DNA of 64,000 bases from Selaginella moellendorffii (Eukaryota > Plantae > Lycopodiophyta): NCBI RefSeq assembly GCF_000143415.4, contig NW_003314262.1, positions 1,663,960 to 1,727,959 of the forward strand, given 5' to 3'. The position numbers and the translations under genes are program-made. This document shows positions 30,151-64,000 of this stretch, piece after piece (the first letter of the stretch is position 1; every line of letters starts with the position of its first letter). The notes beneath the pieces are model-generated. The model made no database searches, was not told the origin of the DNA, and worked only from the letters and a program-made list of their open reading frames with translations.

Positions 30151-31333
30151 CTAATCCAAAAGTATAGTAGAGAGAGTGTGGGGGTTGGACTATAGTGGAA
30201 TCAATTTGGTTAAAAAAGGCTAGTATAGCCTAGGAAGGCTATACTCACGTATTAAGTGATAATATAACCATTGCGAAGTTCAAGGCTAGAGTGAATACAG
30301 ACAAACAAGCAAGGGGGCTTAGTGAAGTGTTCAAAAGCCGGCTCTAACTCCCCTAGGAGATCAAATGGTCGATGCTCCTAATCCAAGTGTGGGTACCACT
30401 ACCTACTTGGATATTTGGCATAGCTCATCAGAACCTTGCTCTAGCCACCTGGTTAGGGCACCTAAAGGCGGATGGTGGGAAGAGTACCCATGAGGCTTGT
30501 ATAGGGCTATAATATTTTGAAATGTCATCCCAGAGTCCTAGACTATGAAAAGAAGAAGAATAGTCCATTTTTGTGGTGATCAAAGATGCAGTCATACAGC
30601 GAAGAGGTCCTAGAGGTCATTGGGACATAGTGGTTGAGCTATAGGCCTTGACCCAGTGGCAATATTGGTGAATATGGCTATGGATGGAAAGGGACTTGAT
30701 AAGGACTAAAAAAGGGATATTAGGAAAGATTATTCCCCATGTCTACTGGCATTCTAAAGATGCTAAGGAGTGGATTTGGGATGATCACTCATGGATAGAT
30801 GGTTTAATCTTTGAGAGATGAGGCTATGATGTAGGTGGTGTTGGACCACTAGTATGACAAAGATGAATAGGCATAACTTTAGCATAAAGGGCTGATATGT
30901 TAGTGGTACTTTTGAGTATTGTTCATGGGATTGGACATGTGGAGCACTTGGACCAAATGCAAAAGTTAAGTGGCATAGATGTCATTCTTGAGGCTAGCAA
31001 GTCCTTAAGTTCAAAATAGGACTTATGGAGGCTAAGAGTGAGACTCTTCCATATGGTTGAAAGTGTGGTTAAGTGACTAAAGTAAAATGGAAAATTTAGA
31101 CGTTTACAATTTGGTATCTGAGTTGTTCCTTAGTCTGACTCTTATTGGCGACTAAGTATATCACCATTTGTATTGGAATTGGAAAGTCCTAGGTATGGAC
31201 CTATCCTCAAGGAGTAGCATGTCAAGAGGACATGGCTCTCCACTCGAGTTCATGCGTGAACTTGTGTGCAATGTGGTGGATGGAAAAGGGCCAGTAAGGG
31301 AACGACTTTGGGATCTTGGGAATAGTATAAGGG

Positions 31334-37300: not shown

Positions 37301-40300
37301 TCATGATGGTTAGTTGTTCTCTTTAATAGCTTTTGGCTTTTCGCAATACCACATGTTCTTTGTGGTTTGCTCTGGATTGGTCTTTTGGGTTTGAGACATC
37401 AATAGGATGTTGCTAACACTTGCTTAGGCAACTTGAGTTCCTTAGTGTTGTTGGCTGGGATCTATTCAGATTGACTAGTGTAATGGTTAATATGAACAAG
37501 CGTTTGTTTGCTTTGCAACATTCATTTTGTTCTGTTGATTATTGCTCGAGTTAGTTCTCATAGATTAGGATGTTATTTCCTTTGGGTGATACATTCGCGA
37601 GCATTGTGCTTGTTAGTCAATAATACTTTGTGTTCTTTGAGTTGTGTTTTGTGAGTTGTTTGGCATGCTATCTGCCATTTTCGGTAGTTCAGTTTCATCA
37701 TTGAGTTTACTTGATGATATACTTGCTATTGAATTTTGTTGGATGGTGATTCCTATGTTTACCACTTATGATGATCTTGGTGGTTCCTCTCTACTATAAT
37801 ACTAGTTTATCGGATGATAACTTACTTGGAATACTTTTGTGTTCTAAAATAAGATTTATTCACTGATAATTCCGACTCTAAGATATCATTGTCTATGACT
37901 TTGATATTTTCCATCTATTGATCTTTGAATTTGGGCCAGTATAGGCAGACTGGCTTCGGCACTTCGTGTGCATGTTGAAATCTCTAGTCATGGGGTAGCT
38001 ACTGTCGACTGGTCACATAACCCGCCTCTCTGTCGATGTTCTTTATTCCGTTGAAAGGGCGTGACTGTGTAAACAACTCTAACTGCCTGTTTACAGTAGT
38101 CTATCTAAACCTTACCGACGGGTTTGGTTTCTTTGCTTAGGAGGGTTGGGGCCTCTGGCTTCTCTCTCTATGTCCTTGCGGGTAGGGCATATCACACTTT
38201 TGTAAGCTAGGTGACTCCCAGAGCAGCAGGGGTGGCTGACACCGTTGGTCATTTCCTTGTCGGCGACAGCCGGAAGGTGTCTGAGCTGGTAGCGCATCCG
38301 CGTTAAACAAAGAGGTTCCCCCTAACTCATTTAAGTTGGTGCATTTCTCACATAGTGTGAGTACCATGAACTTTTTATAGAGTTGTTTCCTTGGCGGTAT
38401 TCTAGACTGGAGTATGCATCGACGAGGACGTCGATCTTCCCAAGGGGGGGAGAGTGTCGCGAATGTGACTTTGGGTATCGAAAGTTACCTGTCGACCAGT
38501 CCTTATGGACACTCTTACTTTACTGCCACGATGGCAGGAGGTCGGTATTGCTGGACCCTTTATTGGCCTCTTTTGTTCAAGTGTTAGTAAACTGGACTTA
38601 GCATCTGTACTTGGCCGGATGAGCATAAGGACGGAATTCCTAAGTGTCTATTTGGCCAAGCATACTTGGCCCGGCTTTTTAGTTCTCTTTTGCTCTGTCT
38701 TGCACTGGCTTGACAAGAACCCTCGCGTATTGAGATTGGTCCCTCAATATCGCTGGATGATAGCTTACCGTGTCTGCCAAACACCCTCGCTATCATGCCC
38801 TTTGTGTTAGTCTCAATTTGTCCTAAATGCTATTTATGGAAAGTGTCCAGATTTGCTCATTTGGCATATCTACGGATTGTAGAGATCGGTCTGAACACAA
38901 TGGTGTTCGTCTTGTGTCCAAATTCGCAATCTAAGGACATTCCATATTTAGTAAGTTTCGAGCTTGTCCCAGAGACTAACTTCTAATACTAAGGGAGGCT
39001 TGGGATGAAAGCCCAAAGCGTGTGTTCCTCAAGGGGGGGGGGGCTGTGGGGGGTTCCAAATGTATAGTAGGGATAGTGGGTAGGTCGGGCATGGCCGACC
39101 AACCTGAGGTATAGTTTAGCTCCCGCTTGCGTGCTTGTCCTTGTTCTGCGTCCGGCTTGGGTCTAAGCCCAAGTTCCATTCCATGCTAGCTGGTGGAGTA
39201 CCCATGTCCTCGCGTTAGGCCACCGGTATGCCGAAATAGCGCCAGACTCCGTTTGGCTCCGTTTTGCGTGCTGGTCCTAGCATTGGGATGCTGGTTGCTC
39301 TAAGACTGTTCCAAGTCGCTCCGGGCCCCTGTCCCTTCGCTTCTTGGGCTGTATGCTCGGGAGTTGCTCCGTGGTCCGGTTCCATCACTCCTTGGCGTCA
39401 CGCTTGCAAGTTTGGCACCGTTCCTTCGTTCAGTGGCCCAAGGCCCTGAACCTCGGGTTCCTATGGACACGTGGCATGGACACGTGGTATGTGACACGTG
39501 GCATCTGTCACGTGGCACAAAGAGGGTTTAGGTTCCGCTTCGTGGTGTTATCCTATGGTAAATCACCATAGGATAAAGGGTCAAAACCACATGTGCTACA
39601 TAGGCTAAAGGATCCCCGAAAACATGACCGAAATGACAAAGAGTTTATCAGATGGGACCGAGTCTAAGATTGAGTCCAAGACCGACTCTGAGACCAAGTT
39701 CGAGATAGAGTCCGGAATCAAGTCCGAGGCTGAATCGGAGACCGAGTTTGAGACCGAGTTTGAGACCGAGTTCGAGACAGAGTCCGAGATCCGAATCGGG
39801 TCTGAGACCAAGTCCGAGGTCAAGTCCAAAGTCGAGTCCGAGATCGGGTCTGAGATCGAGTCCAAGACCGAGTCCGAGACTGAGTCCAAAGTCGGGTCCG
39901 ACATCAAGTCCGAAATCGGGTCCGAGACCGAGTCCGAATACTAATACAGGTGAAGGGGTGAAAGCCCAAAGTGTGTGTCTCCCGGGGGGGCGGGGGGTTC
40001 CAAAAGTATAGTAGGGATAGTGATGTCTACGAATTAGTCTTGAAGGAACTCTCCAGTGGTGCTTCCAAACTGACTTGAGGTTGAAACTGGGGTCGAGGGG
40101 CCTTGGGTGGGAATGAGCATGGACTTGGGTGGTGCCGGAGGGGCCACCCCAGGAAGTGCTCAAGAGTAGCTCCCACTCCTGAAACGGAAACCGATTGCGG
40201 TGTTCCTGGCTCATGTGAAGTGGTGCCCCACTTGAGTACCTTGTGGCTCATTAGTCCTCGCCCTTCCTAGGGGCTTAAGCCTTTCCTTCAGGATGGAAGT

Positions 40301-40681
40301 GGGCCACGGTGTTTTGCCCCAGCATCCCAAAGCAAGTGTTGCACCCAAGACTTGGGATTTATGATCAAGTCTTGTGGTACCAAGGGATGTTAGGAACCTG
40401 ATGGGTTGGTGTGTTTGGCTGCTTGTGCCTGCGGGGAGTGTAGCTGAACCTTAAGTCCAGTTTAACCCAGGGAGGGGGATTGGAAGAGATTTAGGAATCC
40501 GTGGATGGATGGCTAACACTCCGTTGCTCGTGTAGTGAGTAGCTAAAACTAAATAGGACCAAGTAGGAGCTGGTACCATAGGCAGGAACTTTGGCAAGGG
40601 AACTTAGCAAAAGCCAAGGCAGTGTTGGATGGATAGATGAGGTAAGTTGGCAAATTGGAAAGGAAAAATTTGTGGCTTACA
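31334..40681 (+). mobile_element. Family C solo LTR (31334-31366 plus 39606-40681), split by element B
   Basis: Begins tgtaagga and ends tttgtggcttaca like the LTR at 57330-58485. No PBS follows. Flanks AAGGG/AAAGG are a one-mismatch TSD. Confidence 0.85.
31367..39600 (+). mobile_element. Family B non-autonomous (LARD-like) LTR element: partial LTR 31367-32055, LTRs 32335-33480 and 38455-39600, ~5-kb non-coding interior
   Basis: TGTCGC...CTACA termini. Perfect TSD TAGGC (31362-31366 / 39601-39605). PBS tggtatcagag at ~33483. PPT aagggggggagag precedes 32335 and 38455. No interior ORF over ~80 aa. Confidence 0.92.
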
Positions 40682-43600
40682 AAAGGTTTCCTCAAAGAGT
40701 TGAGGATGTGATCCAGATGAGCGTTTGACACAGCAAACGGGCTAATGTAATTGTGGTAAAAAACTATAGTTGGGATCACGGGAAAGATGCAGACTCCAAA
40801 ACAATAAAGGAGTCACAAGATTACCCTCATATAGTGGAGGTTGGTGCTCATAAATTTGAGATCAGAATTGATGACTGTGGGAGGTCAAATACGGAAGAGG
40901 ACACAAGTCCTTGAAATGGTAGCCGGGGCTACTTTTAATAAATGCTAGAACAAACCCAAGGAGTTGGGGGTGTGCTCGGAGGATGAGTTGGTATTCTCAT
41001 CACAAGGACAGATAGTTATAAGGGGCAAAGGTTGCTGCTAGAGAACAAAATCAAGTGTTAGAGTAACACTTGCAAAGATGGTCCTTGTGAGTAGGACATA
41101 AATACAAGGAGTTGTATTCCAGTGTGCTAGCACCTCAAGATAGGTCGTCGAATTAGCAAAGTCCAAAAAGCTGGATAACTCCAATCGAGTCAAGAAATAA
41201 TCCCAAGGGATTGATAGAAGCATTTGGACTGAGATGTATAGTGCCCCACAAAGGATAGGGAGGATCTTAAGATCCAAGTATGGAAATAGTGGGTATTTCG
41301 TTGGTGGCAGAATGTGCTATGCTAAAGTTGTGGGAAAGAGTTTCCCAGAAGAACATAACTTTGGCACAAAGTTGTGCATGAACTCTATGGTGCAGTGCTA
41401 ATGGATAGTTGGCATAAGAGACAGCTGTATTGATCTTGGCAAAAGACCTAGACACAAGTAAAAGGTGTCATAAAAGTAGGCTTGTGGAGCCGATGGTGTA
41501 GAGACACTAAATGTGCCAAGGTGTATTGCCTTGAGGTCAAGTTAACGGGTTTATAAGAACCCCTTCCAAAGGAATCCCAATGGAAATGGGAATTGCATAG
41601 CTTAAGCTGGAAGGCATGTGGTTAGAGTGTGGTGATCCAGATAATGATGGAAGTGTGGAAGCACTAGCAATGAATTGTAGGACTTGACAACTATGAAACA
41701 ACTAAGCAAAAGGTGCAAAATAATTGGTTAAACTAGTAGAAGGTGACTACCTAAGACTTCTTATTGGCATAAAGAAGTTAGATATACCCTTATGAGGGAT
41801 AAATTGCTTATGTTGCGAGATAATAAGTCAATGTCGTAAAGGGAATGCTCATTGCCAAAGAGGCTATCATTGGGACACCCAAGCACTCTAGAACACCAGG
41901 AGGTGGTGTTTGGGGCAATGGATAATGCCCAAGGGATAAAGTCCTTAGCAAATGATGGATAGGAGGTGCTATCCAAATGTCCAAGGTTGCGGAGACAGGA
42001 GAAGTCTATCTACCCAAATTGAACAAAGCCAAAAAGAGATTTTGGCAAGGCTAGTGATGGGCATATAAAGGCCCATAAGTAGCAACAATGACCCCAATGT
42101 GTGGGATTACAAGGTGAGCAAACCCGGATTGAGGAACCACTCCCTAGGCTGTCGGGTAGGTTCATCCCTATGAATACTTGCCAAAGCATGGTAGAAAGTG
42201 CAAAGCTATTTTCCTAGTATGGATGAGAATGACCGAAGGAAATGTATGAGGCCAAAAGGCAAGTAGAAAAGGATAGACCCGAACTATAGGAATCGAAGGG
42301 CATAACCAAAGGTGGTTATGTAAGTTGGGAGTGGAGAATCAAGTGGGTGCTCAAGCATGTTGTCACTAGCGACTATGATGCCATAGAGAGTCTAAAGCAT
42401 GGAATTGTCTATGTTAGACCATGTTAGGTGAAAGGAGAGGCCTTAGCAAGCTAAAGGACAAAGTTCCTTCAAAAGGTTCCCAAAGACAATTCTAAGTAGC
42501 TTGATACCTAGAAAGCCAAGTGTAAATGGTTCATAGAATGCAAAATCAAAGTGGTGCAGTATAAGCATGGTCTTAAAACTTGGCATGAGGTGAGGCTATT
42601 AAGGTTGGGGAAGTAGTTCCCGAGTGTTCAAAGAGAAAGCTTTGAACGAAAGTCAATGGTTAAGGACTTTCACGCTTATGCATGAACTATGTTACGGTGG
42701 CCGGATGACTTGCTAAGTGAGATTGGCATAGTTGAAGGTGCTAACTTAAAAAAGGGTGGCCTATGGGGCCAAGCATGGAGAAGTCCATGCATGATCATAG
42801 ACATGTCAAGTGAGAGGACTTGGCAATGCAGAGGAACTAGGTTCCTAAGCTGTGATTTGTAGCGCGTTTTAAGTCTAAGTTGGTGCATCGGCGTGAGGAA
42901 TTGCACCAGGCATCTTGGGTGATGCCGTCCGTAAATGCATATACGGAGGTTGGGTTCGAGTCCCGACCCTCTAGTGCTTGGGTTCGAGTCCCAAATCACT
43001 AAGGCGTGGTGATGGTTTGGAATATGAGGACACTTATTTTTCGGTGGTCATGGACTCTTAGTAAGGAGACTAGCTTGGGCACACTACCAAGTGGGGAATG
43101 CTCCGAAGTCGTGATACACGGTTAGATTGATTAATGTGAAAACTCGGCATATCTAACTTGAACACTTTGGTGCAAGTGGCACCAAGGATGTGGTGAATGA
43201 GATGGGGACACCCAGTCTCAGTTGCTATGGACCATTGGCTGGAAGGGCTGGCTTGGGTGCACCACCAAGTGTGGGGGATGCTTCCGGGGTCATGGTGAAC
43301 AACTTAAAAGTCTAGAAGACTTAATGCCTATTGGCAAACCTGTTAAGATGCCAAGGTTGGATCACTAAGTGATCTTATGGCTAAAACAAGGATAACGTCC
43401 TTGTGGGGTTAGGAAATAAAGTTCCTAATTCAAAGCATTGATTTGAACTATTGATGATGGTGTGGTTTGGGCAAAGGGACTAAGTGAGAAGAACACCTAA
43501 GGGAAATGAGTTGTGTCAAAGCGATAGCATAATAAGTCTGAAAAAAGTAGTCTCTATAGGAGACCCATAGGAGGGTCACAAAGTTGGGCCGTGGATAAAG

Positions 43601-46600
43601 CCCACAGTAGAAAATACTAAAAAGACATATTAGGGGTGAACACCCTCTGGACTTGGCAAAACAAAGTGTTTGTATAGAACCGAAAAGATACCTCGAAAAT
43701 GGAAGTAGTGATCCTATGTTGTTAGGTGCAACAATCAAGGATAGGAGCAAAAGACTAGTGGTTAAGAAAAAGGCCATGGGAATCATGGGAAAGAATCCAA
43801 ATGGCAAAATTAGGCCAAGAATACTAATGTGTTGGGTGCTAATGGATTGTGGGAAAGGCAATATGTTTCCAAGAATGGATTCCTAACTACTCCAATTTGG
43901 CAAAGGTGGAAGATCCAAGGGTGAGAGTGGTAAGGTAGCCAAATGATAGGGCCGTGAACAGCCTTAGTACAAATTATGATAACTGGAACTTAGTGCTAAA
44001 GGTAGTACGAAATCAAAGAGAGGATGATGGTGCCCTCAAGTAGAGAACTTTCTAGGATGGGGAAGTGGAGTTGCACCATATGTGCAATGCAAGGTGTTAT
44101 AGACACCCAGAAAATTGACTTCGAGAAGTCAGAATTAAAAGTTCCAAAGTGCAAAGGTTATATTGATGGAAATTAAGACTACTCGAGAATGAGTAATAGG
44201 ATTGAGATAGAGAAGATGTCTTTAATAGGTTTAGTGAGAACTAAATCAATAAAATGAGAGAATCACCACAAGTGGTCGAATGAGTCTCTAAGTTGGGAAG
44301 ACTATGCTCCTTAGAGGATGGGAAAGGCATGGTGAGCCTTTGGTATCAAACCATTGACAAATATTGGCGAGAAGCTAAGGATGGAAAGGGTAATACAAGT
44401 TGGTATTACTTTATAAAATAGTTTACTATTCAATGAGGACATTGAACTTTGTCTATGGGTGGTGGAGTTGTGAGACACAAAATCCCTAGGCCCCAAAGTG
44501 GAGCTAAAAGGGTGCCATGTGGTAGTGGCCAAAGCGAAAACTAAACAAGCGTAACACGTTTGGACTAAAAGCTCCAACTTAAAAGGTCGAGAGCGGGAGT
44601 GGAACTCCCAACGAAGGGCTCAAGGAACAAGCACGGAGCAAGCAATAAGTGAGTCTCTAGAAAAAGGACACGAGATGGATATGAGATGGACCCGAGATGG
44701 AGTCCGAGATGAACCCAAGATGGACTCCGAGATGGATCCAACATGGACTCCGAGATGGAGTCCGAGATGGATTTGAGATGGAGTCCGAGATGGAGTCCGA
44801 GATGGATTTGAGATGGAGTCCGAGATGGAGTCCAAGATGGACTCGAGATGGAGTCCGAGAAGGACCTGAGATGGAGTCCGAAGTTGAGACCGGGACCGAC
44901 ACCGGAACTGAGACCAAGACTGAGACCAAGGCCAAGGCCGAGACTAAGCCCAAGCTTGAGTCTGAGTCCGAGTCCGAGTCTGAGAGGGTGAAAGCCCAAA
45001 GCGTTCGTCTCCCAGACCCTAGGGGGTTTGGTGAGCTCCAAAAGTATAGTGAGGGGGAGGACTGTAGGACATTGAACTTCATCTATGGGTGGTGGAGTTG
45101 TGAGACACAAAATCCCTAGGCCCCAAAGTGGAGCTGGAAGGGTGCCATATGGTAGTGGTTAAAGTGAAAACCAAATGAGCATAACACGTTTGGATTAAAA
45201 GCTCCAACTTGAAAGGTCGAGAGCAGGAGTGAAACTCCCAACGAAGGGCTCAAGGAACAAGCACAGAGCAAGCAATAAGTGAGTCTCTAGAAAAGGGACA
45301 CGAGATGGACCTGAGATGGAGTCCGAGATGGAGTCCGAGATGGACCTGAGATGGACCCGAGATGGAGTTCGAGATGGAGTCCGAGATGGAATCCGAGATG
45401 GACCCGAGATGGAGTCCGAGATGGACCCGAGATGGAGTTTGAGATGGACCCAAGATGGAGTTCGAAATGGAGTCCGAGAAGGACCCAAGATGGAGTCCGA
45501 AGTCAAGACCGAGACCGAGACTGGGACCAAGACCGAGATTGAGACCGGGACCTAGACCGAGACCAAGGCCAAGGCTGAGACCGAGCCCAAGGCTGAGTCC
45601 AAGTCCGAGTCCAAGTCTGAGTCCGAATTCAAGTCTGAGAGGGTGAAAGTCCAAAGCGTTCATCTCCCAGACCCTGGGGGGTTTAGTGAGCTCCAAAAGT
45701 ATAATGAGGGGGAGGATTGCAATGGAGCCAGTTTGGCTAGGAAAGGCCAGTTTGGCCCAAGAAGGCTGTTCCCAAGTGTTGGGTGATGGGATAACCACTA
45801 GAAGTCCAAGGCTAAAGTGAATATAGATTGACAAGCGGGGTAGCTTGGTGAAGTGTTCAAGAGCCGGCTCTAGTTCCCTCGGAAGATCGACTGGCCAATG
45901 CTCTTAGTCCAAGTGTGGGTGGCACTACCTACTTGGATACCTAGTGTGGCTCAATGGAACCTCGCTCTAAACCCATGGCTAGAGCACCCAAAGGCAGAAG
46001 GCAGGGAAAGTACCCATGAGGCCACGGTGTTCCAAAATGTTGTTCCAAAGTCCCAGACTATGGAAAGGAAGAGGAGTAGCCCTCTGGTGTGGTGACCAAG
46101 GACATGGTCACACGGTGAGGAAGTCCTAAAGGACTGTGGGACTTAGTGGTCGGGCTTGTGGGCCTTGATCTAGTGGCAGTGTTGGTGAACACAGCCATGG
46201 ATAGAAAGGGATTTAGTGAGGACCGAAAAGGAGATATTGGGGAAGGCTATTCTCCATGTCTGCGGGCATCCTAAGTATGCTAAGGAGTGGATTTGGGATG
46301 ACCATTCATGGACGGATGGCCCAGTCTTGGAGAAATAGGATTGCAAAGCAGGTGGTGTTGGACCACCAATATGACCAAGGTGAATGAGCATGGCCTAATG
46401 TAATAGGCTGATATGTCGGTGGTACCTTGGGGTGCCGATCATAGGATCGGACACATGGAGCACTTGGACCAAGTGCAAAGGTTGAGTGGCATGGATGCCA
46501 TTCTCAGGGATAGCAAGCCCTAAGTTTGGAATAGGACTTATGGAGGTGGTGAGTGAGACTCCTTCAAGTGGTCAAAGGTGTGGCTAAATGACTAAAGTAA

Positions 46601-49393: not shown

Positions 49394-52300
49394 TGTAAGT
49401 GACTAATTTTTCCATTCTACTTTAGTCACTTAACCACACCTCCGACCACTTGGAGGAGTCTCATTCACAACCTCCATAAGCCCAACTCAGGACTTGGGGC
49501 TTGCTTGCCCCGAGAATGGCATCCATGCCACTCAACCTTAGCACTTGGTCCAAGTGCTCCACGTGTCCGATCCCATGATCGACACCCCAAGGTATCACCG
49601 ACGTACCGGCCCGTTACGCTAAGGCCATGCCCATTTACCTTGGTCACACTGGTGGTCCAACACCACTTGCATCACCGTCTTGGCCCTCCAAGACTAGGCA
49701 AACCATCCGTGAGTGGTCATCTCAGATCCACTCCTTAGCATCCTTAGGATGCCCACCGACAAGGGGAATAGCCTTCCCCAATATCCCTCTGTCAGTCCCC
49801 ACTAAGTCCCTTTCTGCCCCTGGCCGTGTTTGCCAACACTGCCACTGGATCGAGACCCACAGGCCCGACCACTAAGTCCCACAGTCCTCTGGGACTTCCT
49901 CACCACACGACTGTGTCCTTGGTCACTACCCCAGAGGACTGCTCCTCTTCCTTTCCACAGTCTGGGCCTTTGGGACGACATTTCGGAACACCGTGGCCTT
50001 ACGCGAGCCACCTGGGTACTCTCCTCGCCTTCTGCCCTTGGGTGCTCTAGCCATGGGCTTAGAGCGGGTTCCGTTGAGCCACACCAGGTATCCAAGTAGG
50101 TAGTGCCACCCACACTTGGACTGGGAGCATCGGCCAGTCGATCTCCCGGGGGAACTAGAGCCGGCTCTTGAACACTTCACCAAGCTACCCCGCTTGTCGG
50201 TCTGTGTTCACTCTAGTCTTGGACTTCCCAGTGGGCAGCTCATCACCCAACACTGGGTCTGGCCTTCCTGGGCCAAACTGGCCTTTCCTGGCCAAACTGG
50301 CTCCACTGCAGTCCTCCCCCTACTATACTTTTGGAGCTCACCAAACCCCCCAGGGTCTGGGAGACGAACGCTTTGGGCTTTCACCCTCTCAGGCTCCGGA
50401 CTCGGACTCGGACTCGGACTCGGACTCGGACTCGGACTCGGATTCAGACTCGGACTCGGTCTCGGCCTCGGTCTCGGTCTCGGCCTCGGCCTCGGTCTCG
50501 GCCTCAGTCTCGGTCTCGGTCCCGGTCTCGGTCTCGGTCTCGGTCCCGGTCTCGGTCCCGGTCTCGGTCTCGACTTCGGACTCCATCTCGGACTCCATCT
50601 CGGACTCCATCTCGGACTCCATCTCGGGTCCATCTCGGACTCCATCTCGGACTCCATTTCGGGTCCATCTCGGGTCCACCTCGGACTCCATCTCGGACTC
50701 CATCTCGGACTCCATCTCGGGTCCATCTCGGACTCCACCTCGGACTCCAACTCGGGTCCATCTCGGGTCCACCTCAGACTCCACTTCGGACTCCATCTCG
50801 GGTCCATCTCGGGTCCACCTCGGACTCCACTTCGGACTCCATCTCGGACTCCATCTCGGGTCCATCTCGGACTCCACTTCGGACTTCAACTCGGGTCCAT
50901 CTCGGACTCCACTTCGGACTCCAACTCGGGTCCATCTCGGACTCCACTTCGGACTCCAACTCGAGTCCATCTCGGACACTCCCCCGTGTCATGTGTTGGT
51001 CCTTTTGGGTCCCTTTCTGGAGCCTCGCTTTTTGCTCGCTTCGTGCTCGTTCCTCGAGCCCTTCTTTGGGAGTTCCACTCCCGCTCTTGACTTTTCAAGT
51101 CGGAGCTTTTGGTCCAAACGTGTTACGCTCGTTTGGCTCTCGCTTCAGCCACTACCACGTGGCACCCTTTCCGGCTCCACTTTGGGGCCTAGGGATTTTG
51201 TGTCTCACAACTCCACCACCCATAGACTAAGTTCGATGTCCTCATCGAACGGTAAACCCTTTCATAAAGTAACACCCACACGTGTTACCTTTTCCATCCT
51301 TGGCACCTAGCCAATCTTTGTCTATGGTTTGACACCAAAGGCTCACCATGCCTTGTCCATCCTTTAAGGAGCGTAGTCTCTCCAACTTAGAGACTGATTG
51401 GACCACATGTAATGGTTCTCTCCTTTTATTGGTTTAGTTCTCGCTAAACCTCTTAGAGACCCTTCTCTAAGTCAATCCCACTACTCCTTCTCGAGTAGTC
51501 TTAATTTCCATCGATATAACCTCTGCACTTTGGAACTTTGAATTTTGACTCCTTGGAGTCAATTTCCTAGGTGTCTCTGACACCTTGCTTTGCACCTTTT
51601 GTGCAACTCCACTTCCCATCCTAGGAAGTTCTCTACTCGAGGGCACCATCATCCTCTCTTCTATTTCGTGCCAAAGTTCCAGTTATCATACTTTGTGCTA
51701 GGGCTGTTCATGGCCCTATCATTTGGCTACCTTACCGCTCCCTCCCTTGGAGCTTCCACTTTCGCCAAATCGGAGCAATTCGGAATCCATCCTTGGAAAC
51801 ACACTTCCTTTCCCGCAATTTGTTAGCGTCCAACACATTAGTGTTCCTCGCCTAACTTTGTCACTTGGATTCCTTCCCAGGGATTCCACGGCCCTATCTT
51901 GGCCACTCATCTTTTGCTCCTATCCGTTGATTGTTGCACCGAGCAACATCGAATCTCTACCTCCCTCCTTGAGGTATTCTTTTGATTCCTTAGCAAAGGC
52001 TCTGCTTTGCCAAGACTAGGGTGTTCACCCCTAGTAAGTCTCTTTTAGCATCTTCTGCTGTGGGCTCTATCCTCGGCCCAACTTTGTGACCCTCTCATGG
52101 GTCTCTTTAGAGACTACTTTCCTTGGACACACTATGCCATCGCGATGACATAGCTCATTTCCCTAAGGTGCTTTTCCCACTTGGTCACCTTGACCAAGCC
52201 ACACCATCATCAATAGTTCAAATCAACACTTTGAACTAGGAACCTTATTCCTTAACCCAAACAAGGACCTTGTCCTTATTTAGCCACAAGATCACCTAGT

Positions 52301-55300
52301 GATCTCACCTCGGCACCTTAACAGGTTTGCCAATAGGTACTAGGTCTTCCAGACCTTTAACTTGTTAACTACGACCCCGGGGGCATCCCCCACACTTGGC
52401 GGTGCGCCCAAGCCAGCCCTTCCGGCCAAGCGTCCATAGCAACTGAGATTAGGTGTCCCCATCTCACTCACCACGTCCTTGGTGCCACTTGCACCAAAGC
52501 GTTCAAGTTAGATATGCCGAGCTTTCACACTAAGCAATCTAACCGTGCATCACGACTCCGAGGCATCCCTCGCTTGGCGGTGTGCCCAAACCAGTCTCCC
52601 CACTGAGAGTCCATGACCACCGAAATATGAGTGTCCTCATATTCCAAACCATCACCACGCCCTAGTGATTTGGGACTCAAACCCAAGCACTAGAGGGTTG
52701 GGACTCGAACCCAACCTCCGTATATGCATCTACGGACGGCATCACACAAGATGCCTGGCGTGACTCCCCACGCCGGTGCACCAACTTATTTTTAAAGCGC
52801 GCTACAGATCACAGCTTAGGAACCTAGTTCCTCCACACTGCCAAGTCCTCTCACTTGACATGTCTGTGATCATGCATGGACTCCTCCATGCTCGGCCCCA
52901 TGGCCCACTCTTTTTGAAGTTATCACTTTCAACTAGGGTCTTTGTTCCCCCGACGTGCCAATCTCACTTGGCAAGTCCTCCGACCATTGTAACATGGTTC
53001 CTACATAAGCGTGAAAGTCCTTGACCATCGACTTTCGTTCAAAGCCCTCTCTTTGAACACTCGGGAACTACTTCCCTAACCTTGATAACCTTGCCTCATG
53101 GCAAGCTTCAAGACCACGCTTCTGCTGCGCCACTCTGATTTTGCACGTTCCATGAACCATTTACACTTGGCCTTTCTAGGTACTACGCTACCTAGAATTG
53201 TCTTTGGGAACCTTGAAGGAACTCTGTCCCTCAGCTTTTCTAAGGCCTCCCCTTTCGCAAGCTTTATAGTTGCCATATAGTCTAACATGGACAATTCCAT
53301 ATTTTAGACTCTCCATGGCATCACGGTTGCTAGCGGCAACACCCTCGAGCCCCCACTTGATTCTCCACTCCCAGCTGGCATAACCAACCTTGGTTATGCC
53401 CTTTGATTCCTACGGTTCGGTTCTATCCCCTTACTTCTTGCTTTTTGGCTTCACACCTTTCCTTTGGTCATTCTCCTCCAGACCAGGAGGATAGCTTTGC
53501 ACCTTCTATCATGCTTTAGCAAGTATTCTTAGGGATGAACCTACCCAATAGCCTAGGGAGTGGTTCCTCAATCCGGGTATGCTCACCTTATAATCCTACA
53601 CACTGGGATTACATTGTTGCTTATGGGCCTTTACATGCCCATCACTAGCCTTGCCAAAATTCCATTTTTGGCTTTGTCCAACTCGGGTAGACAGTCCTCT
53701 CCTGTCTCCGCAACCTTGGACATTTGGATAGCACCTTCTATCCATCATTCGCTAGGGACTTAGTCCCTTGGGCTTTATCCATTGCCCTCGCGACATCAAA
53801 CACCACCTTCTGGTGTTCTAGAGTGTTCGGGTGTCCCAATGATGGCTTTCTTGACAATGAGTATTTCCTTTTATGACATTGACTTACTATATCGCAACAC
53901 AAGCAACTTATCCCCCGTAAGGGTATATCCAACTTCCCTATGCTATTAAGAAGTCTTGGGTAGCTACCTTTTACCTGTTTAACCAGTTATTTTGCACCTC
54001 TTGCTTAGTTGCCTCATAGTTGTCAAGTCCTACAACTCATTGCTTGGTGCTTTCGCACCTCCATCATTATCTGGGTCACCACACTCCAACTGCATGCTCT
54101 GCAGCTTAGGCTATGCTATTTCCATTTCCATTGGGATTCCTTTGGCAAAGGGTTCTCATGAACCCACTAACATAGCCTCAAGGTATCACACCTTGGCACA
54201 TTTGGTGTCTCCACACCATCGGCTCCACAAGCCTACCTCTATGATATTTCCCCTTCGTGTCTAAGTCTTTGCTAAGACCAACACCGCTCTTTCTCATGCC
54301 AACCATCCGTTAGCACTGCACCATAAAGGTCACACACAACTTTATGTCAAAGTTGTTTTCTTCTGGGAACACCTTTCCCATAACTTTAGCATGGCATATT
54401 TTGCCATCGATGAGATACCCTCTGTTCTCATCCTTGGATCCTATGATCCCCCCCCATCCTTTGTGGGGTACAACACACCTCAGTCCAAATGCTTCCATCA
54501 GTCCTTTTAGGACCATCTGTTGACTCTACTTGAGTCATCCAGCAGTTTTGGACTTGGTTAATCCACAGACCCGTAAGGTCCTACTTGTGAGGCACTAGCT
54601 CACTGGAATACACTTCTTGCATTCTTGTCTTACTCAAAAGGACTATTTTCACAAGTGTTACTCCGACACTTGATTTTGTTCTCTGGGGGCAACCTTTGCC
54701 CCTTAGGACTACTTGTCCATGTGATGAGAACACCAACTCATCCACTTAATACACCCCCAACTCTTGGGGTTGTTCCAGCATTTATTAGAGGTAGCCCCGG
54801 CTACCTTTTCAAGGACTTGAGTCCTCTTCCGTATTTGACCTCCCACGGTCATTACTTCTGGTCTCACATTCATGAGCACCAACCTCAACTATATGAAGAA
54901 AATCTTATGACTCCTTTATTGCTTTGGAGTCTTTATCTTTCCCGTGATCCCAATTGTAGTTGTTTACCACAACTACATTAGCCAGTTTGCTAAGTCAAAC
55001 GCTCATCTGGATCACATCCTCAACTCTTTGAGGAAAACCATATATTGTTCCCAAGATCCCAAAGTCGTTCCATTATTGGCCCTTTTCTATCCACCACCTC
55101 GTCTACAAGTTCACACATGAACTGTAATGGAGAGCCATGTCTTCCCGACTTGCTACTCCTCAAGGATAGGCCCACTCCTCGGACCTTCCGATGCCAACAC
55201 TAGTGGTGATATACTTGAGCACCAATAAAAGTCAGACTAAGGAACAGCTCCGATACCAAGTTGTAAGCGACTAATTTTTCCATTCTACTTTAGTCACTTA

Positions 55301-56975
55301 ACCACACCTCCGACCACTTGGAGGAGTCTCATTCACAACCTCCATAAGCCCAACTCAGGACTTGGGGCTTGCTAGCCCCGAGAATGGCATCCATGCCACT
55401 CAACCTTAGCACTTGGTCCAAGTGCTCCACGTGTCCGATCCCATGATCGACACCCCAAGGTACCACCGACATATCGGCCCGTTACGCTAAGGCCATGCCC
55501 ATTTACCTCGGTCACACTGGTGGTCCAACACCACCTACATTCCAATCCCGTCTCTCAAAGACTGGGTCATCCATCCATGAGTGATCATCCCAGATCCACT
55601 CCTTAACATCCTTAGGATGCCTACAGACATGGGGAATAGCCTTCCCAATATCTCTGTTCCGGTCCCCACCAAGTCCCTTTCTGTCCTTGGCTGTGTTCGC
55701 CAACACTGCCACTGGATCGAGGCCCACCGGCCCGACCACTAAGTCCCACTATCCTCTAGGACTTCCTTACTGTGTGACTGTGTCCTTGGTCACTACCCCA
55801 GAGGACTGCTCCTCTTCCTTTCCACAGTCTGGGCCTTTGGGACAACATTTCGGAACACCGTGGCCTTACGCGAGCCACCTGGGTACTCTCCTCGCCTTCT
55901 GCCCTTGGGTGCTCTAGCCATGGGCTTAGAGCGGGTTCCGTTGAGCCACACCAGGTATCCAAGTAGGTAGTGCCACCCACACTTGGACTGGGAGCATCGG
56001 CCAGTCGATCTCCCGGGGGAACTAGAGCCGGCTCTTGAACACTTCACCAAGCTACCCCGCTTGTCGGTCCGTGTTCACTCTAGTCTTGGGCTTCCCAGTG
56101 GACAGCTCATCACCCAACACTGGGTCCGGCCTTCCTGGGCCAAACTGGCCTTTCCTGGCCAAACTGGCTCCACTGCAGTCCTCCCCCTACTATACTTTTG
56201 GAGCTCACCAAACCCCCCAGGGTCTGGGAGACGAACGCTTTGGGCTTTCACCCTCTCAGGCTCCGGACTCGGACTCGGACTCGGACTCGGACTCGGATTC
56301 GGACTCGGACTCGGCCTCGGCCTCGGTCTCGGCCTCGGCCTCGGTCTCGGTCTCGGTCCCGATCTCGGTCTCGGTCTCGGTCCCGGTCTCGGTCCCAGTC
56401 TCGGTCTCGACTTCGGACTCCATCTCGGACTCCATCTCGGACTCCATCTCGGGTCCATCTCGGGTCCATCTCGGACTCCATCTTGGACTCCATCTCGGGT
56501 CCATCTCGGACTCCATTTCGGGTCCACCTCGGACTCCATCTCAGACTCCATCTTGGACTCCATCTCGGGTCCATCTCGGACTCCACTTCGGACTCCAACT
56601 CGGGTCTATCTCGGGTCCACCTCGGACTCCACTTCGGACTCCATCTCGGACTCCATCTCGGGTCCATCTCGGACTCCACTTCGGACTCCAACTCGGGTCC
56701 ATCTCGGACTCCACTTCAGACTCCAACTCGGGTCCATCTCGGACACTCCCACGTGTCATGTGTTGGTCCTTTTGGGTCCCTTTTTGGAGCCTCGCCTTTT
56801 GCTCGCTTCGTGCTCGTTCCTCGAGCACTTCGTTGGGAGTTCCACTCCTACTCTTGACTTTTCAAGTCGGAGCTTTTGGTCCAAACGTGTTACGCTCGTT
56901 TGGCTCTCGCTTCGGTCACTACCATGTGGCGCCCTTCTGGCTCCACTTTGGGGCCTAGGGATTTTGTGTCTCACA
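49394..56975 (-). mobile_element. Complete family A non-autonomous (LARD-like) LTR element: 5' LTR 55262-56975, 3' LTR 49394-51209, ~4.05-kb non-coding interior
   Basis: TG...CA termini. Perfect TSD CATGG (49389-49393 / 56976-56980). Minus-strand PBS tggtatcggagc (~55247-55258) and PPT gggtggtggagt (51210-51221). Confidence 0.95.
50395..50977. repeat. Hexamer/dodecamer arrays (CTCGGA, CTCGGT, CTCCATCTCGGA) inside family A LTRs; related GAGTCC/GAGACC arrays in family C LTRs
   Basis: Also at ~44680-44980, 45300-45640, 47120-47490, 56262-56745, and in family C at 39655-39940, 57415-57685, 63790-64000. Confidence 0.95.
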
Positions 56976-59744
56976 CATGGATGCCCAATATGTATGAGAG
57001 TTCATGCTATTTGCTCTTATACCACATGTAGTGCACTTTATCTCTCTCCCCTTAAACTAATTAGAAAAGGGGCAATTGCTTGATGTGAGAGCCCTTAGTA
57101 ACTATTTTATCCCTATTTATCCCCCAAGGTTCTAAGGATCCACGGTGACAATATATCAAAATCTCATCCCATGATCACATGCATTACTGTAATTGAGAGG
57201 TAAGGGAAGTTCCTGAGACAAAGAACCAACATCCTACATATGAAGACAATGAGGAGTTAGGGGAGGAAAATGAAAATTAGCTGGAACAGAAAGGGGAATA
57301 TTATACAACTGAATTGACTACGAAATAAGTGTAAGGAACTAACTCGCCGAGGTGTTGTAGGCTAAAAGAGCCCCGAAAGCATAACCAAAATGATAAAGAG
57401 TTCATCGGATGGGACCAAGTCTAAGATCGAGTCCGAGACCGACTCGGAGACCGAGTTCGAGATAGAGTCCAGAATCGAGTCCGAGACCGACTCGGAGACC
57501 GAGTTCGAGACCGAGTTCGAGACAGAGTCCGAGATCCGAAATCAGGTCCGAGACCGAGTCCGAGGTCGAGTCCGAGGTCAGGTCCGAGATCGGGTCTAAG
57601 ATCAAGTCCAAGATCGAGTTCGAGACCAAATCCGAAGTCGGATCCGAGATCAAGTCCGAGATCGAGCCAGAGACTAAGTCCGAGTACTAATACGGGTCAA
57701 GGGGTGAAAGCCCAAAGTGTGCATCTCCCGGGGGGGGGGGGGGGATGTAGGGGGTTCCAAAAGTATAGTAGGGATAGTGAGGTCTAGGAACTAGTTTTGA
57801 AGGAAATCTCTAGTGGGGCTACCAAACTGACTTGAGGTTGGGATTGGGACCAAGGGGCCTTGGGTGGGAGTGAGCATGGACTTGGTTGGTGCTGGAGGGG
57901 CCATCCAAGGAAGTGCTAAAGAGCAGCTCCCACTCCCGAAAGGGAAACCGATTGTAGTGCTCCCGGCTCATGTGGAGTGGTGCCCCACTTGAGTACCATG
58001 CGGCTCATTGGTCCTCGCCCTTCCTAGGGGCTTGGACCTTCCCTTCGGGATGGAAGTCGGGGGGTAGAGGTACCCATACCGAGCCGTTAGGCCACGGTGT
58101 TTCGCCCCGACATCCCGAAGCAAGTGTTGCACCCAAGGCTTGGGATTTAGAGGCCCTGGGTCCCATGATCAAGTCTTGTTGTACCAAATGGTGTTAGGAA
58201 CCTGGAGGCTTGGTGTGCTTGGCTGCTTGTGCCTACGGGGAGTGTAGCCAAACCTTAAATCCAATCTAACCCGGGGAGGGGGATTGGGAGAGATTTGGGA
58301 ATCCATAGATGGATGGCTAACACTCCGTTGCTCGTGCAGTGAGTAGCTGAAACCAAGTAGGACCAAGTAGGAGCTGGTACAATAGGCGAGAACCTTGGCA
58401 AAGGAACTTAGCACAAGCCAAGACAGTGTTGGTCAGATAGACGAGGTAAGCTGGCAAATTAGAAAGGAAAAATTTGTGGCTTACAATTTGGTATCAGAGC
58501 CTTTTCCTCAGTTCTAGCGAAGGATAGAGGCGGATTGCTGGGAGATGGCAAAGGTAGGGCGGAAGCGAACCAAGGCAGAGAAGGACCCTCCTCCAGAGCT
58601 AGAGCCTCTGGTTGAACAAGAGGCTATGGATGAGGAATCCTTGCATAAGGAGGACTCTAGTGAGGAAACTTCCAAACAGGAGTCCGGTGGCGAAGTTCGG
58701 TCGTCCAAGGCTCGATTGGACATGCTAGAAGGACAGTTGGCATAGACCAATGCCCTGTTGGAGACTCTCGTACGCAAGCTAAAGCGTGACGAGAAGCGGA
58801 AGAAAAAGAGAAAGACTGCGGATGCTAGTAGCGCAGAAGGTGCGGACCCTTCGGCAGGGACTGAGGCAGAACCAAACAAGGTCGAATAGACAGAAGTAGA
58901 ATCAGTCCCTCAGGTAGTTCCCAAGTACAAACCAAAGCCCCCACCGGTCTTCAAGGGAGTGAATGACTATAAGGTGGTGGAGGATTGGTTTTACAATATG
59001 GAGGACTACTTTCGAGCGTTGCGATTACCGAGTTCGGAGAAGGTCCCATGTGCAAAACCATACTTGGCAGATAATGCCAAGTCTTGGTGGAGAACGACAG
59101 AGGCCAACGAAGGATCGGTGGCCACTTGGGACATGATGAAGGCGAGGATCCGCGCAATATACGTTCCTCCGAATGCCACTCTGCATCTGAGAGATGAGCT
59201 GAGTAGGCTGAAGCAGATTGGAACCATCCAAGAATATGTGAATGGGTTCATGGCAAAGAGGATACTGGTCACAGACATGGGGGATATGAATACATTCCAT
59301 GCCTTCATATCAGGTTTGCAAACCTAGGCTCGCGGTGAAGTGATGCGGTGGAACCCAACCAACTACAAGGAAGCATTGGATGCGGCCATCAAGGTGCATT
59401 TCAATGATAACCTGCGAAAGGGGAACACGACGGGGTCGGGATCCACATTTAGCAAAGGGGCCAAACCAAGAGGAACGTATAGCAGGGGGAAATTCAAGAA
59501 GAGTTTATCTAAGAATGAGTCCTCGGGGTTTCGGAAAGGCAAATCCAGTGGCCAGCGAGCGAGTACGTGGGGGAGTCAAGTGAAAAGAGACAAACCCACG
59601 GATAAGAAGGTCAAGTCGTATAGCAGCGTGGGAAACAACGTATGCTACAACTGCGGTGAAGTGGGACACTTTTCGAGGGAATGTCCCTTCCCGAAGAAGG
59701 CCAGAGCCAATATGGCCATCAAGTCGGGTGAAGTCCAAACTGAG

Positions 59745-59801
59745 GTATGTGATCCAGTCCTTAACTCAAAGTTACTCATTACACGAACAACTTTGGTAAA
59801 G
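59745..59801 (+). other. Candidate 57-nt in-frame intron between the gag zinc knuckle and the protease
   Basis: gag|GTATGT...ggtaAAG|agt; AT-rich relative to its flanks and host-like in size. Confidence 0.5.
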
Positions 59802-62418
59802 AGTCGTTCGCGACATCTACTAGCCCTCAGAGGGAAGCTCGGAGGTAGCTTTGTTAAGATCCTTATTGACACGGGTGCTTCGGATAATTTTGTGGCTGCA
59901 GATATAGTCCGGCAAGCTAGACTAACGGTGCAGCGGTTAGGCGAACCAAGGACTATAGAGTTTGTTCAAGGTAGCCAAAGCACTGATGAGGTACTTCGAC
60001 AAGCGAGAGTTGAAGTAGGGACATGGAAAGTAGACATGGATTTCACTGTGTTGGACATGGCGGGATTTGACGTGATCTTCGGAATGGATTGGTTTAATCG
60101 GTTCGTGGTAGCCCTGCATGGACAAGGTAGGAACCTTGTGGTACTGGCGAATGCCCAAGGAAGAAGATCTAGGGTGGAGGCCCAGGATCTAAAGGTAGGG
60201 CAAAGCAAGGCCAAAGATTCCTACTTAAACCTGGTGTCCACGAGAGGACAACTCACTAAAGGAACTAAGGCAGCCTTTTTGTGCTTACTCTCGGTGAAGA
60301 GTGACAAAAAGACATGAACAAAAGAAGTACCTTTAGTGATCTAGTGGGTGTTGGACCAATTCCAGGATACCATGCCAGAGGAGCTACTGGCGGGGTTGCC
60401 CTTTGCATGACCGATAGAACATAAGATTGAGCTGGTCAAGGGTGCTGAGGCAATGGTTCATCCCCCCTATCGTTTGAACGAAAAAGAACTCAAGGAGCTT
60501 AAGTGCCAACTAGAGGAGTTGGTGGAGAAAGGGTATGTTAGGTTGAGCAAGTCGCCATAAAGGGTGCCAGTGTTATTTGTGCAAAAGAAAGATGGTTCTA
60601 TGCGCATGTGCATAGACTACTAGTTGCTCAACAAGTGTACAAAGAAAAACAAGTACCCTTTGTCAAGAATTGAGGACCTGTTCGATAGGTTGGGAAAGGC
60701 AAAATACTTCTCAAGGATTGACCTAAGGTCAGGATACTACCAGATCAGGGTAGCCGAGGAAGATGTCGAGAAGACAACCTATCGAACGAGGTATGGGAGC
60801 TTTGAGTTTCTGGTGATGCCCTTCGGGCTATGCAATGCGCCAGCAACATTTTCGGTGCTGATGAACCACATCTTTGTACCCTATCTGGATCACTTCGTAG
60901 TCGTTTATATCGATGACATCTTGATCTATAGCGAGACGCTAGAGGAGCATGCCGAACACTTGGCGAAAGTGTTTGAGAAACTAAGGGAACACAAACTGTA
61001 TGCTAAAGAGAGCAAATGTGACTTTGCTCAACAAGAGGTAAAGTTTCTTGGGCATGTGGTGGGCCAGGACGGGCTCAAGGTGGACCCAGAGAAGGTCCAA
61101 GCGATCCAAGAATGGGAGCGACCATCGAATGTACATGAGTTGAGGGCGTTCTTGGGGCTATGCAACTACTACCGAAAGTTTATTAGACACTATTCGAAAG
61201 TAGCCCTGCCCTTAACGGACCAAACAGAAAAAGAGAAGATGGTATGGACAGCAGAATGCGAGGCAGCATTCGTCCACCTCAAAGGAAAGTTGAGGAAGGC
61301 TCCCATGTTAGCATTACCAGACTTTGGTAAGGACTTTGAGGTAGAAACAGATGCTTCAGACTTTGCGTTAGGCGCAGTTTTGAAGCAAGACAACCATCCA
61401 GTAGCGTTCTTCTTGAAGAAGTTGGACAAGGCTCAATGGAAGTGGCATGCCCATGAGAAGGAATTGTTTGCGGTGGTCAAGGCGCTCAAGGAGTGGCGAC
61501 ACTACCTTGGGAGACACTTCAAGGTTTACGCAGACAATGTGGCAACGAAACACTTCTTGTCACAGCCCGACCTGAGAGGGAAACAAGGTCGGTGGGCCAA
61601 TGCCTTGGCCGAGTTTGATTGTGAAATTCTGTACAAGCCTGGGAAGAGCAACATCATGGCGGATGCGCTAAGTCGAAAAATGAGCTTGAGGTTGGCGATA
61701 TCCAGCGCAACAGCAACCTTCTGAGACGATGTGCGAACAGCATATGAGAACGATGGTCTAGCACAAGAAGTGTTGCTCAGGAATCTAGAGGCACGGGAAG
61801 CTCACCAGAGAGGTGAGCTGCCAACGGAAGAGAAAACGGGTTATGCGGAACGCAACGGACTCATCTATTACAAGCAAACGAGGGTGTATGTTCCAGAAGG
61901 GGAACTAAGGAAGGTAGCCTTAGAAGAGTGTCATGACGGACTTTTTGTGGGACACGGCAGAGTGCCCAAGACGATGGGCTTACTCAAGAGGAAGTACCAT
62001 TGGCTAGATATGGCTAAGGACGTCCAAGACTATGTAAAGACATGTCCAACATGTCAGCAGGTCAAAGCCGTGACTAAGGCTAGTGGGGGCTTGTTGCAAA
62101 GCATCCCAATTCCAGATCGTCCGTGGAAATGTCTTACGATGGACTTCATCATAGGACTTCCCCCAAGTGAGGGGTTTGATGCGATATTCATGGTGGTGGA
62201 CCGATTTTTGAAAATGGCACATTTCATACCCACTACAACGGAAGTGGATGCGGAAGGTGTGGCAAAGCTGTTCTTTGAACAAGTGCTTCCAGTGCGGGGA
62301 AGGCCGGAAGAGATCATCTCAGATCGAGATAAGATCTTCACTAGTAGGTTCTGGAGGACTCTCCTGGAACAGTATCGCACCAAGTTGAAATTCAGCACAA
62401 CCTATCACCCACAGACAG

Positions 62419-62460
62419 GTATGGGTATTAAATCAAGTTTGGTGGCACTAACACTTCTTG
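62419..62460 (+). other. 42-nt intron-like insert in the integrase core; acceptor apparently mutated
   Basis: Splits the conserved YHPQTD(G)QTER motif. Starts GTATGG, contains CACTAAC, ends ttcttg rather than ag. Confidence 0.65.
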
Positions 62461-62878
62461 ACAGACAAACGGAAAGGGTGAATAGGCAGCTGGAGGATTA
62501 TTTGCGATGCTATGTCTCGGGAGACCAGACCGATTGGGTAAGTCATTTGGGACTTGCGGAAATGTGTTATAATAACTCACCACATTCGAGTATCGGGGTG
62601 AGTCCATGGGAAGTCATCAATGAGCGAGCTATTGAAGGTCCTGTGGAACTCGGCGTGGCCGAGTATCATGGAGAGTTACCCGCAGTGGAGGCATTCACAG
62701 TGGAAAGACTCAACATTTGGAATCTAGTGAGGGATTCTTTGGAACGGGCACAACAAAGGCAAACCAAGTACGCAAACCAGAAGTGCCGGGACGTAGAGTT
62801 CCAAGCTGGGGAGAAGGTGTGGCTGAACACCAAGAACCTCAAGCTACCAAGTGGGATCAGCCGAAAGTTGACCCAAAG

Positions 62879-62930
62879 GTAAAAATGCATGTATTCCTGT
62901 AAATGAATTGATCTTGAGTTCCTTAAGCAG
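62879..62930 (+). other. 52-nt GT-AG intron in the integrase C-terminal region
   Basis: caaag|GTAAAA...TTAAGCAG|gttcgcggggccttac. Removal restores KLTQRFAGPY and the frame into the chromodomain. Confidence 0.85.
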
Positions 62931-64000
62931 GTTCGCGGGGCCTTACGAGAATAAGGCTCGAATCGGTAAAGTGGCTTACCGTCTCCGACTTCCTCGAGAG
63001 ATGGGGAAGATGCATCCCATGTTCCACGTGAACTTACTCAAGCCGTATTTTGAGGATCCATTTCGCAAGGACCAAGTAAGACCTTTACCTGAGGTTATCC
63101 AAGGGGAAGAGGAATACGAAGTCGAGGCCATCCTCAATGCGCGCAAGAGCAAGTGACAAGGACGCAAGGTGAGAGAGTTCTATGTGAAGTGGAAAGGATT
63201 TCCACACTGCAAAGCAACATGGGAACTGGAGGAGAACCTAGCGAACGCACGAGATCTAGTGGAGGAATTTTTGCAAGGCAGAACTCTATGTACTTATGCA
63301 AAGTTCAATTAAATGTATCAATTTGAGAAGTTGAGCAATGGCATATGTTGGGACCCAAAGGCGCGCCGAAGGTAAGCTAATTAGCATGGGTTAGGTAGGT
63401 CAACCAGGCATAGGGGACTACGCCCGACTCCCTACGGGGATGTCAAATCCGTAGACGTATTCTGGGTTCAAGTCCCAACCCCCTAGTAAAGCAAGGTTGG
63501 GTTCAAGTCCCAACCCCATACTAGGGCATGGTGAGGTGAGGAGTATAGGGACACCTATATTCCGTTGTCATCGGCTCTTGGCCCGGGAGGCTAACTTAGG
63601 CACACCGCTAAGTGGGGGGATGCCCCCAGAGACATGGTCAACAAGTCGTAGGATAAAAAAGAGACGTTCGATGTGGGCATCGAACTTCTTCTATGGGTGG
63701 TGGAGTTGTAAGGAACCAACTCACCGAGGTGTCATAGGCTAAAAGAGCCCCGAAAGCATGACCAAAATGATAAAGAGTTCATCGGATGGGACCAAGTCTA
63801 AGATCGAGTCCAAGACTGACTCTAAGACCGAGTTCGAGATAGAGTCCGGAATCGAGTCCGAGACCGACTCGGAGACCGAGTTCGAGACAGAGTCTGAGAT
63901 CCAAAATCGGGTCCAAGACCGAGTCTGAGGTCGAGTCTGAGGTCGAGTCCGAGGTCGGGTCCGAGATCGGGTCCGAGATTGAGGCCAAGATTGAGTCCGA

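Follow-up and report, generated by a model that had tools for sequence, protein, structure and literature searches.

The window, by which we mean the whole 64,000-nucleotide stretch of Selaginella moellendorffii DNA analysed here, has Frigida-like, PPR and F-box plant genes in its first 22 kb or so and, beyond these, LTR elements nested in one another. The Frigida-like ORF shows 91% identity to a protein of S. moellendorffii. The last of the LTR elements, on the forward strand, is a copy of a high-copy family that we call family C. It opens with a 1156-bp 5' LTR (57330-58485) that has TG..CA ends and a tract of 15 G at 57730, followed by a 13-nt primer-binding site (PBS) of tRNA-Met type, read from the sequence (58489-58501), by a gag-pol region (58545-63308; gag, CCHC, PR, RT, RH, IN and chromodomain) interrupted by several stops in this copy, by a polypurine tract (PPT, 63693-63706) and by the start of a 3' LTR (63707-64000) that runs beyond the window. 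LTRs, PBS, PPT and the order gag-PR-RT-RH-IN are thus present as for a Ty3/gypsy chromovirus, and tblastn with relatives bearing PF00385 places the chromodomain at 62923-63282 (44.7%, E 1e-24).

Family C matches a Galadriel-type Ty3/gypsy chromovirus and fits SM1-Galahad, an assignment made by published description only. The available text on SM1-Galahad (PMC3350952) reports an element of about 7.5 kb (an estimated 7533 bp for C) from the same host species, with LTRs of more than 1 kb that include a G tract, a 13-nt tRNA-Met PBS and a chromodomain in a later, short ORF. Its ORF ending in integrase has 1295 codons, against 1291 codons in C up to the start of the first of two intron-like inserts (PMC3350952). 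Insert 1 (62419-62460, forward strand, about 42 nt with an approximate 3' boundary) lies in integrase, starts with GT, contains CTAAC and amounts to 14 extra residues inside the HPQTDGQTERVN motif of relatives; the published 1295-codon ORF would end four codons into it. Insert 2 (62879-62930, forward strand), also in integrase, is a 52-nt GT..CAG stretch recognised by a change of frame, across which the related protein continues without missing residues. Contigs cover insert 2 to a depth similar to that of the sequence on either side, and insert 1 is seen in other copies from loose contig ends. From the reading frames, the two inserts are likely to explain the split ORFs published for SM1-Galahad. 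RNA reads on C (9, 3 and 0 of 9.2 million per run, with zero "RNA-guess" contigs) were too few to expect splice joints or piles of read ends, and none appeared. The word "intron" is absent from the text of PMC3350952 available to us, and its section 2.1 makes no mention of 3' UTR hairpins. In its accessible part, a 2025 review cites Ogre and EVADE alone as intron exceptions among plant LTR elements (PMC12786077); the inserts would add a Galadriel element to that short list.

A second family, A, is represented by three copies. A3 (49394-56975, reverse strand) is a full non-coding LTR element of 7.6 kb with a 4043-bp interior, flanked by the 5-bp target duplication CCATG. An earlier note on this DNA had described family A as devoid of coding capacity, and tblastn agrees: the frames of C find no match in 1-57000, nor do 10 related polyproteins in 23001-57000. 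With more than 4 kb, LTRs, PBS, PPT, a target duplication and no coding region, family A fits the description of a LARD. The PBS of A3 (at about 55236-55248, reverse strand) is identical to the 13 letters with which the interior of Helenus-1_SMo opens and differs from that of C at two positions. Within 31333-40682 A1 is interrupted by a C solo LTR, into which a young non-coding LTR element has in turn been inserted; the latter lacks a T-arm but has 1426-bp repeats 99.3% identical to each other and a tRNA-Met-type PBS. Long arrays of a CpG-rich 12-bp repeat occupy A and C LTRs at 57410-57700, 50300-51000, 56180-56750 and 44660-45700.

What, then, do a coding and a non-coding family have in common? 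Outside the interior, the LTRs share the 12-bp tandem repeat region and their last 30 bp. Within it, alignment of A3 with C returns a block in the 3' UTR (72.6% over 164 columns), a second copy in A3 of the 3' half of that block (75.4% over 114 columns) and 42 nt at the PPT, just before the LTR (90.5%), the PPT itself being identical. One further match, of 24 nt with an E of 0.22, we take as chance. The PBS of the two elements is similar by eye, so that block, PBS and PPT region are all that the interior of A3 shares with C.

In C, the block (63398-63645, forward strand; delimited by comparison and folding) is roughly 250 nt long, lies between pol and PPT inside a 3' UTR of 400 nt, and is predicted to form about ten hairpins. 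Its counterparts are at 52358-52785 on the reverse strand in A3 and at 42878-43306 on the forward strand in A1, located by sequence and by a covariance model, with folding in addition for A3. The state of the family is read from contigs of family C aligned to the window copy (sets of 17,774, 22,830, 3,789 and 10); the shares given below are depth-weighted, not copy counts, and variants are recorded at a cut of 8%. The block opens with eight nucleotides (63398-63405) that form a palindrome in most copies, completed by a majority G at 63402; their A3 counterpart, GGTGCACC, is palindromic too. This stretch precedes hairpin H1 (63407-63424, forward strand, from contigs and alignment), in which a majority G at 63410 (88% of depth) closes the sole broken pair while a majority A at 63416 and G at 63417 yield the GGAG loop that most copies have, as do A2 and A3. 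Downstream, at 63540-63627 on the forward strand, a hairpin with a GACA loop is followed by three more; this unit, supported by comparison, RNAalifold and a covariance model, occurs twice in family A. Searched against the window, the covariance model of the 3' half of the block recovers the five copies on which it was trained; no other match exceeds 11.3 bits. Directly 5' of the PPT, an 8-bp hairpin (63666-63685, forward strand) has the same stem in A3. In A2 (27431-27520, reverse strand) the block breaks off immediately ahead of T-arm 1, where it is fused to LTR interior. We had considered A2, which has no arms, as evidence against a need for them, and rejected it because the PPT is missing as well; for the same reason the deletion appears to postdate insertion.

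The arms in question are the feature to which the earlier note had drawn attention: tandem GGGTTYRAGTCCC units at three places, with the geometry of a tRNA T-arm. All are present, six units in three pairs, at 63464-63476 and within 63483-63524 in C (unit 63499-63511, on a basal helix of 6 bp), at 42952-42964 and 42980-42992 in A1 (both forward strand), and at 52712-52700 and 52684-52672 in A3 (reverse strand). Every unit reads in the sense of its own element, and all lie inside the element, between about 190 and 1450 nt ahead of the 3' LTR. Five of the six match the Pol III B-box GGTTCRANNCC exactly, the unit at 52684-52672 having the loop TTTGAGT, and there is no further exact match in the 64 kb. 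Five matches compare with 1.25 expected and were reached or exceeded in 3 of 100 shuffles; however, the three pairs are homologous, so that they represent one event seen three times rather than independent copies. The description as an isolated pair of hairpins needs amending, in that the arms, though real, are two of about ten hairpins in the larger shared block.

Nor do the stems all have the claimed 5-7 bp. Arm 1 of the 63-kb copy retains only 3 bp, its outer stem having gone because nine letters after 63462, present in other copies, are missing there. Arm 2 does show a perfect 7-bp stem in the window, but this is not the state of the family: C at 63497 accounts for 89% of contig depth and G at 63512 for 78% (run X1, with which X4 agrees), which gives three G-C pairs, one G-U, a C-A mismatch and two more G-C pairs, and makes it likely that the perfect stem arose by two deamination events in the window copy. 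For loop 1, 82% of depth reads TTCGAGT (G at 63470), and loop 2 is TTCAAGT in family C, with no variant recorded at 63505 at the 8% cut. At family level the loops of A and C differ only at the R of TTCRAGT. The two arms resemble a tandem duplicate.

Is the block conserved as a structure? Between C and A3, 53 of 54 stem pairs stay paired, with six one-sided changes, seven two-sided changes and one broken pair. Under a transition-only null the expected numbers are 1.8 for two-sided changes (P 1.5e-5 to 4.5e-5) and 7.7 for broken pairs (P about 0.001), although these P values are optimistic, since the pairs were hand-picked, counted outward from shared loops in helices chosen by eye. All stem changes are transitions, a class of change that decay driven by methylation would yield as well, and one of the seven two-sided changes is private to A3. 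However, at five A-T pairs of C that stand opposite G-C in A3 no variant is recorded at 8%, which indicates a family-wide state and not decay of the window copy. RNAalifold finds two-sided changes in 10 of the 31 pairs of the GACA unit across five sequences. A1 and A3 are also modestly more alike in the block than outside it: they are identical at 380 of 426 positions in the block (89.2%) versus 2827 of 3324 elsewhere (85.0%; Fisher p 0.023), and over the twin arms at 60 of 63; 93 of 3788 windows score at least as high. Conservation of the loops, with one difference in 14 positions against 28% divergence in the block, is not clearly stronger (P about 0.07, by hand arithmetic).

Folding gives a more uneven picture. 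Over 271 nt the block folds better than all 200 shuffles in both C (z -3.59) and A3 (z -4.54), and in all three copies folding is better for the sense than for the antisense strand. In 150-nt windows the block of C scores z -1.14 and -2.05, while the minimum elsewhere in C is -3.83. The non-coding interior of A3 (51210-55252) has z below -3 in 17 of 39 such windows. In longer sequence context the predicted probabilities of the two arms are 0.99 and 0.99 in A3, 0.36 and 0.18 in A1, and 0.01 and 1.00 in the C copy. Taken together, the sole long internal similarity between A and C, the two-sided changes and the A1/A3 identity support the earlier suggestion of a selected cis element and, as far as comparison of copies can tell, point to selection on the block at the level of RNA structure.

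There are several scenarios that might explain such a pattern. The units could descend from a tRNA or SINE that the element captured and now work as a Pol III promoter, an arrangement like that of Helenus or Cassandra. Stretches one mismatch away from an A-box do occur upstream, at a distance of 59 nt in C and 72 nt in A; however, they are not homologous between the families and each misses a consensus base. A run of four T is absent from the 540 nt of C and 720 nt of A3 scanned downstream, a single T5 being found in A1 only. With neither a conserved A-box nor a terminator in C or A3, the promoter suggested in the earlier note is unsupported. Searches for a tRNA are equally negative: ARAGORN reports no genes, and Rfam covariance models, scanned over the whole window, return no match in the block with an E of 1 or less. 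At E up to 10 there is no match for A3 and three weak ones for C, among them mascRNA (15.3 bits against a threshold of 42.5) and tRNA-Sec (13.7 against 47), which rest on the T-arm alone. Mimicry of tRNA consequently extends to the T-arm but not to a cloverleaf or acceptor end, neither of which ARAGORN or Rfam finds. The Helenus family does exist in the same species and, like Cassandra, consists of LTR retroelements with a Pol III-type box, but the accessible description places A and B boxes together inside the LTR of an element below about 1.3 kb (within a 120-bp LTR in Helenus-1_SMo), while here two B-like units lie internally, outside the LTR (PMC10886601). We regard this scenario as very improbable. 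The same units might instead act on the DNA as stand-alone B boxes that bind TFIIIC, for insulation or tethering, with no Pol III transcript involved. In yeast and mammals TFIIIC can bind a B box that stands alone, and an exact GGTTCRANNCC in five of six units fits such binding. Yet a B box comprises only 11 bp and leaves the paired outer stems, the basal helix and the hairpins with two-sided changes unexplained, so that we consider a role of this kind improbable.

Two further scenarios accept a selected RNA structure. Imagine that one hairpin was duplicated before A and C split and that any stable hairpin would do, the likeness to a T-loop being incidental. The tandem-duplicate look of the arms, the imperfect stem 2 of most C copies and the weakness of loop conservation taken alone all speak for this, as does the fact that twin B-box-like pairs arise elsewhere for other reasons. 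If so, however, we would not expect all family-level loops to fit TTCRAGT with a closing G-C pair and to vary only at R, when the neighbouring pre-PPT and H6 hairpins did alter their loops; we judge the scenario unlikely. Alternatively, introns in pol might make it necessary for unspliced genomic RNA to be exported or stabilised, and the block might be the element that does so. CTE and RTE are elements of this sort in simple retroviruses and IAP, and the block has a comparable position directly before the PPT, in an element whose DNA copies retain two intron-like inserts. Against this, the block would be part of spliced and unspliced RNA alike, and it offers no acceptor stem or CCA end, which the tRNA exporter requires. 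Intron-bearing plant LTR elements are described as needing special export, but TAP/NXF1, the CTE receptor, as unused in plants, in the part of the review available (PMC12786077). An export or stability role thus also seems unlikely, marginally more so than incidental likeness.

This leaves the reading that we favour, with somewhat better than even confidence: the block is a folded signal on genomic RNA, read by the element's Gag/Pol for packaging or dimer formation. Of the three options in the earlier note (a TFIIIC-binding insulator, a Pol III promoter, a tRNA-mimic packaging signal), an RNA-level signal is the best fit, with the proviso that the likeness to tRNA holds for the T-arm only. The block would fold in vivo on genomic RNA, each TTCRAGT loop would adopt a T-loop fold, and that T-loop might dock on another loop or be bound by a protein, as in box B of brome mosaic virus (BMV), the reader presumably being the Gag/Pol of the element. 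Family A may have kept the block so as to be mobilised in trans by C, as the shared PPT region, LTR end and block suggest. Since the interior of A3 shares only block, PBS and PPT with C, nature has already made the comparison that narrows the candidate signal to about 250 nt, small enough for in vitro probing. Some further points sit uneasily with this proposal. In most C copies the 5-bp T-stem of arm 2 has a C-A mismatch at its foot, and known retroviral packaging signals lie mostly in the 5' leader, whereas the block is in the 3' UTR. A more elaborate version, in which genomic RNA is selected through a 3' UTR module of twin T-loops that mimic the tRNA elbow or interlock as a platform for primer tRNA, in which the non-coding partner has stolen that module, and in which integrase is expressed from spliced RNA but the packaged RNA is unspliced, strikes us as doubtful.

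How widespread is the block? So far it has been seen in one species only. Among 76 related metagenome Ty3/gypsy loci it has no match (best E 0.44) and the twin T-arm none either, with lone weak matches in six loci; the test of distribution is limited, since many of these loci break off before the 3' end and L123 is the only close relative from the Galadriel clade. Several of the loci have almost no 3' UTR. That the block is absent from them implies that relatives do without it, and it looks like a lineage-specific addition. In one contig from a diverged relative, both flanks align at about 80% and 199 other letters replace the block (63392-63640). A different element is more common: a pre-PPT hairpin with an AGGA loop and differing stems of 5-9 bp is found, by eye, in family A and in at least 21 of the 76 loci (L126, L130, L134, L138, L141-L144, L150-L153, L157, L163, L170, L178, L181-L183, L188 and L189). 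A3 has it near 51225-51245, and C (63666-63685) keeps the stem with the loop TGGG; this hairpin looks like a widely conserved cis element. In viral contigs a generic twin-B-box pattern has at least 122 matches, by eye mostly phage tRNA clusters and remnants, and a stricter one 13, from which it follows that the pattern alone is not diagnostic. In many phage contigs (L001-L122) a tRNA gene or tRNA remnant is followed, 12-30 nt on, by a single additional T-arm.

The block is apparently undescribed in the literature searched: for T-loops, B boxes or introns in Galahad elements we found no description in titles and abstract openings, Repbase and subscription journals being outside the scope of that search. 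To our knowledge, most packaging signals in plant LTR retrotransposons have yet to be mapped, and so has the set of features that a non-coding element must keep in order to be mobilised along with its partner. Among retroviruses, the packaging or dimer signal of MLV has twin GACG loops and that of HIV-1 the SL1/SL3 hairpins. The block seems to resemble them in grouping short hairpins, one with a GGAG and one with a GACA loop, and in having a short palindrome, but the retroviral signals are located in the 5' leader and lack a T-loop pair. With LARDs, family A shares the features listed above, and the accessible account holds that such elements must retain recognition sites for the proteins of their partner (PMC4350172); the difference is that in family A the shared site can be pinpointed. 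A T-loop pair was not described for LARDs in the literature searched. A close parallel is box B of BMV, an internal copy of the T-psi-C loop in a stem-loop of a replicating RNA which, in the part of the source available, acts in cis to select that RNA via protein 1a, as tested by mutation (PMC4083346). The corresponding feature, a T-loop consensus in a 7-nt hairpin loop closed by G-C, is present here, although its prediction is weak for A1. Box B occurs once per RNA, in an RNA virus, while the spikemoss units are twinned, belong to a retroelement and are predicted only (PMC4083346). If the T-loop pair does act as a packaging signal, it would extend this trick of a plant RNA virus to retroelements.
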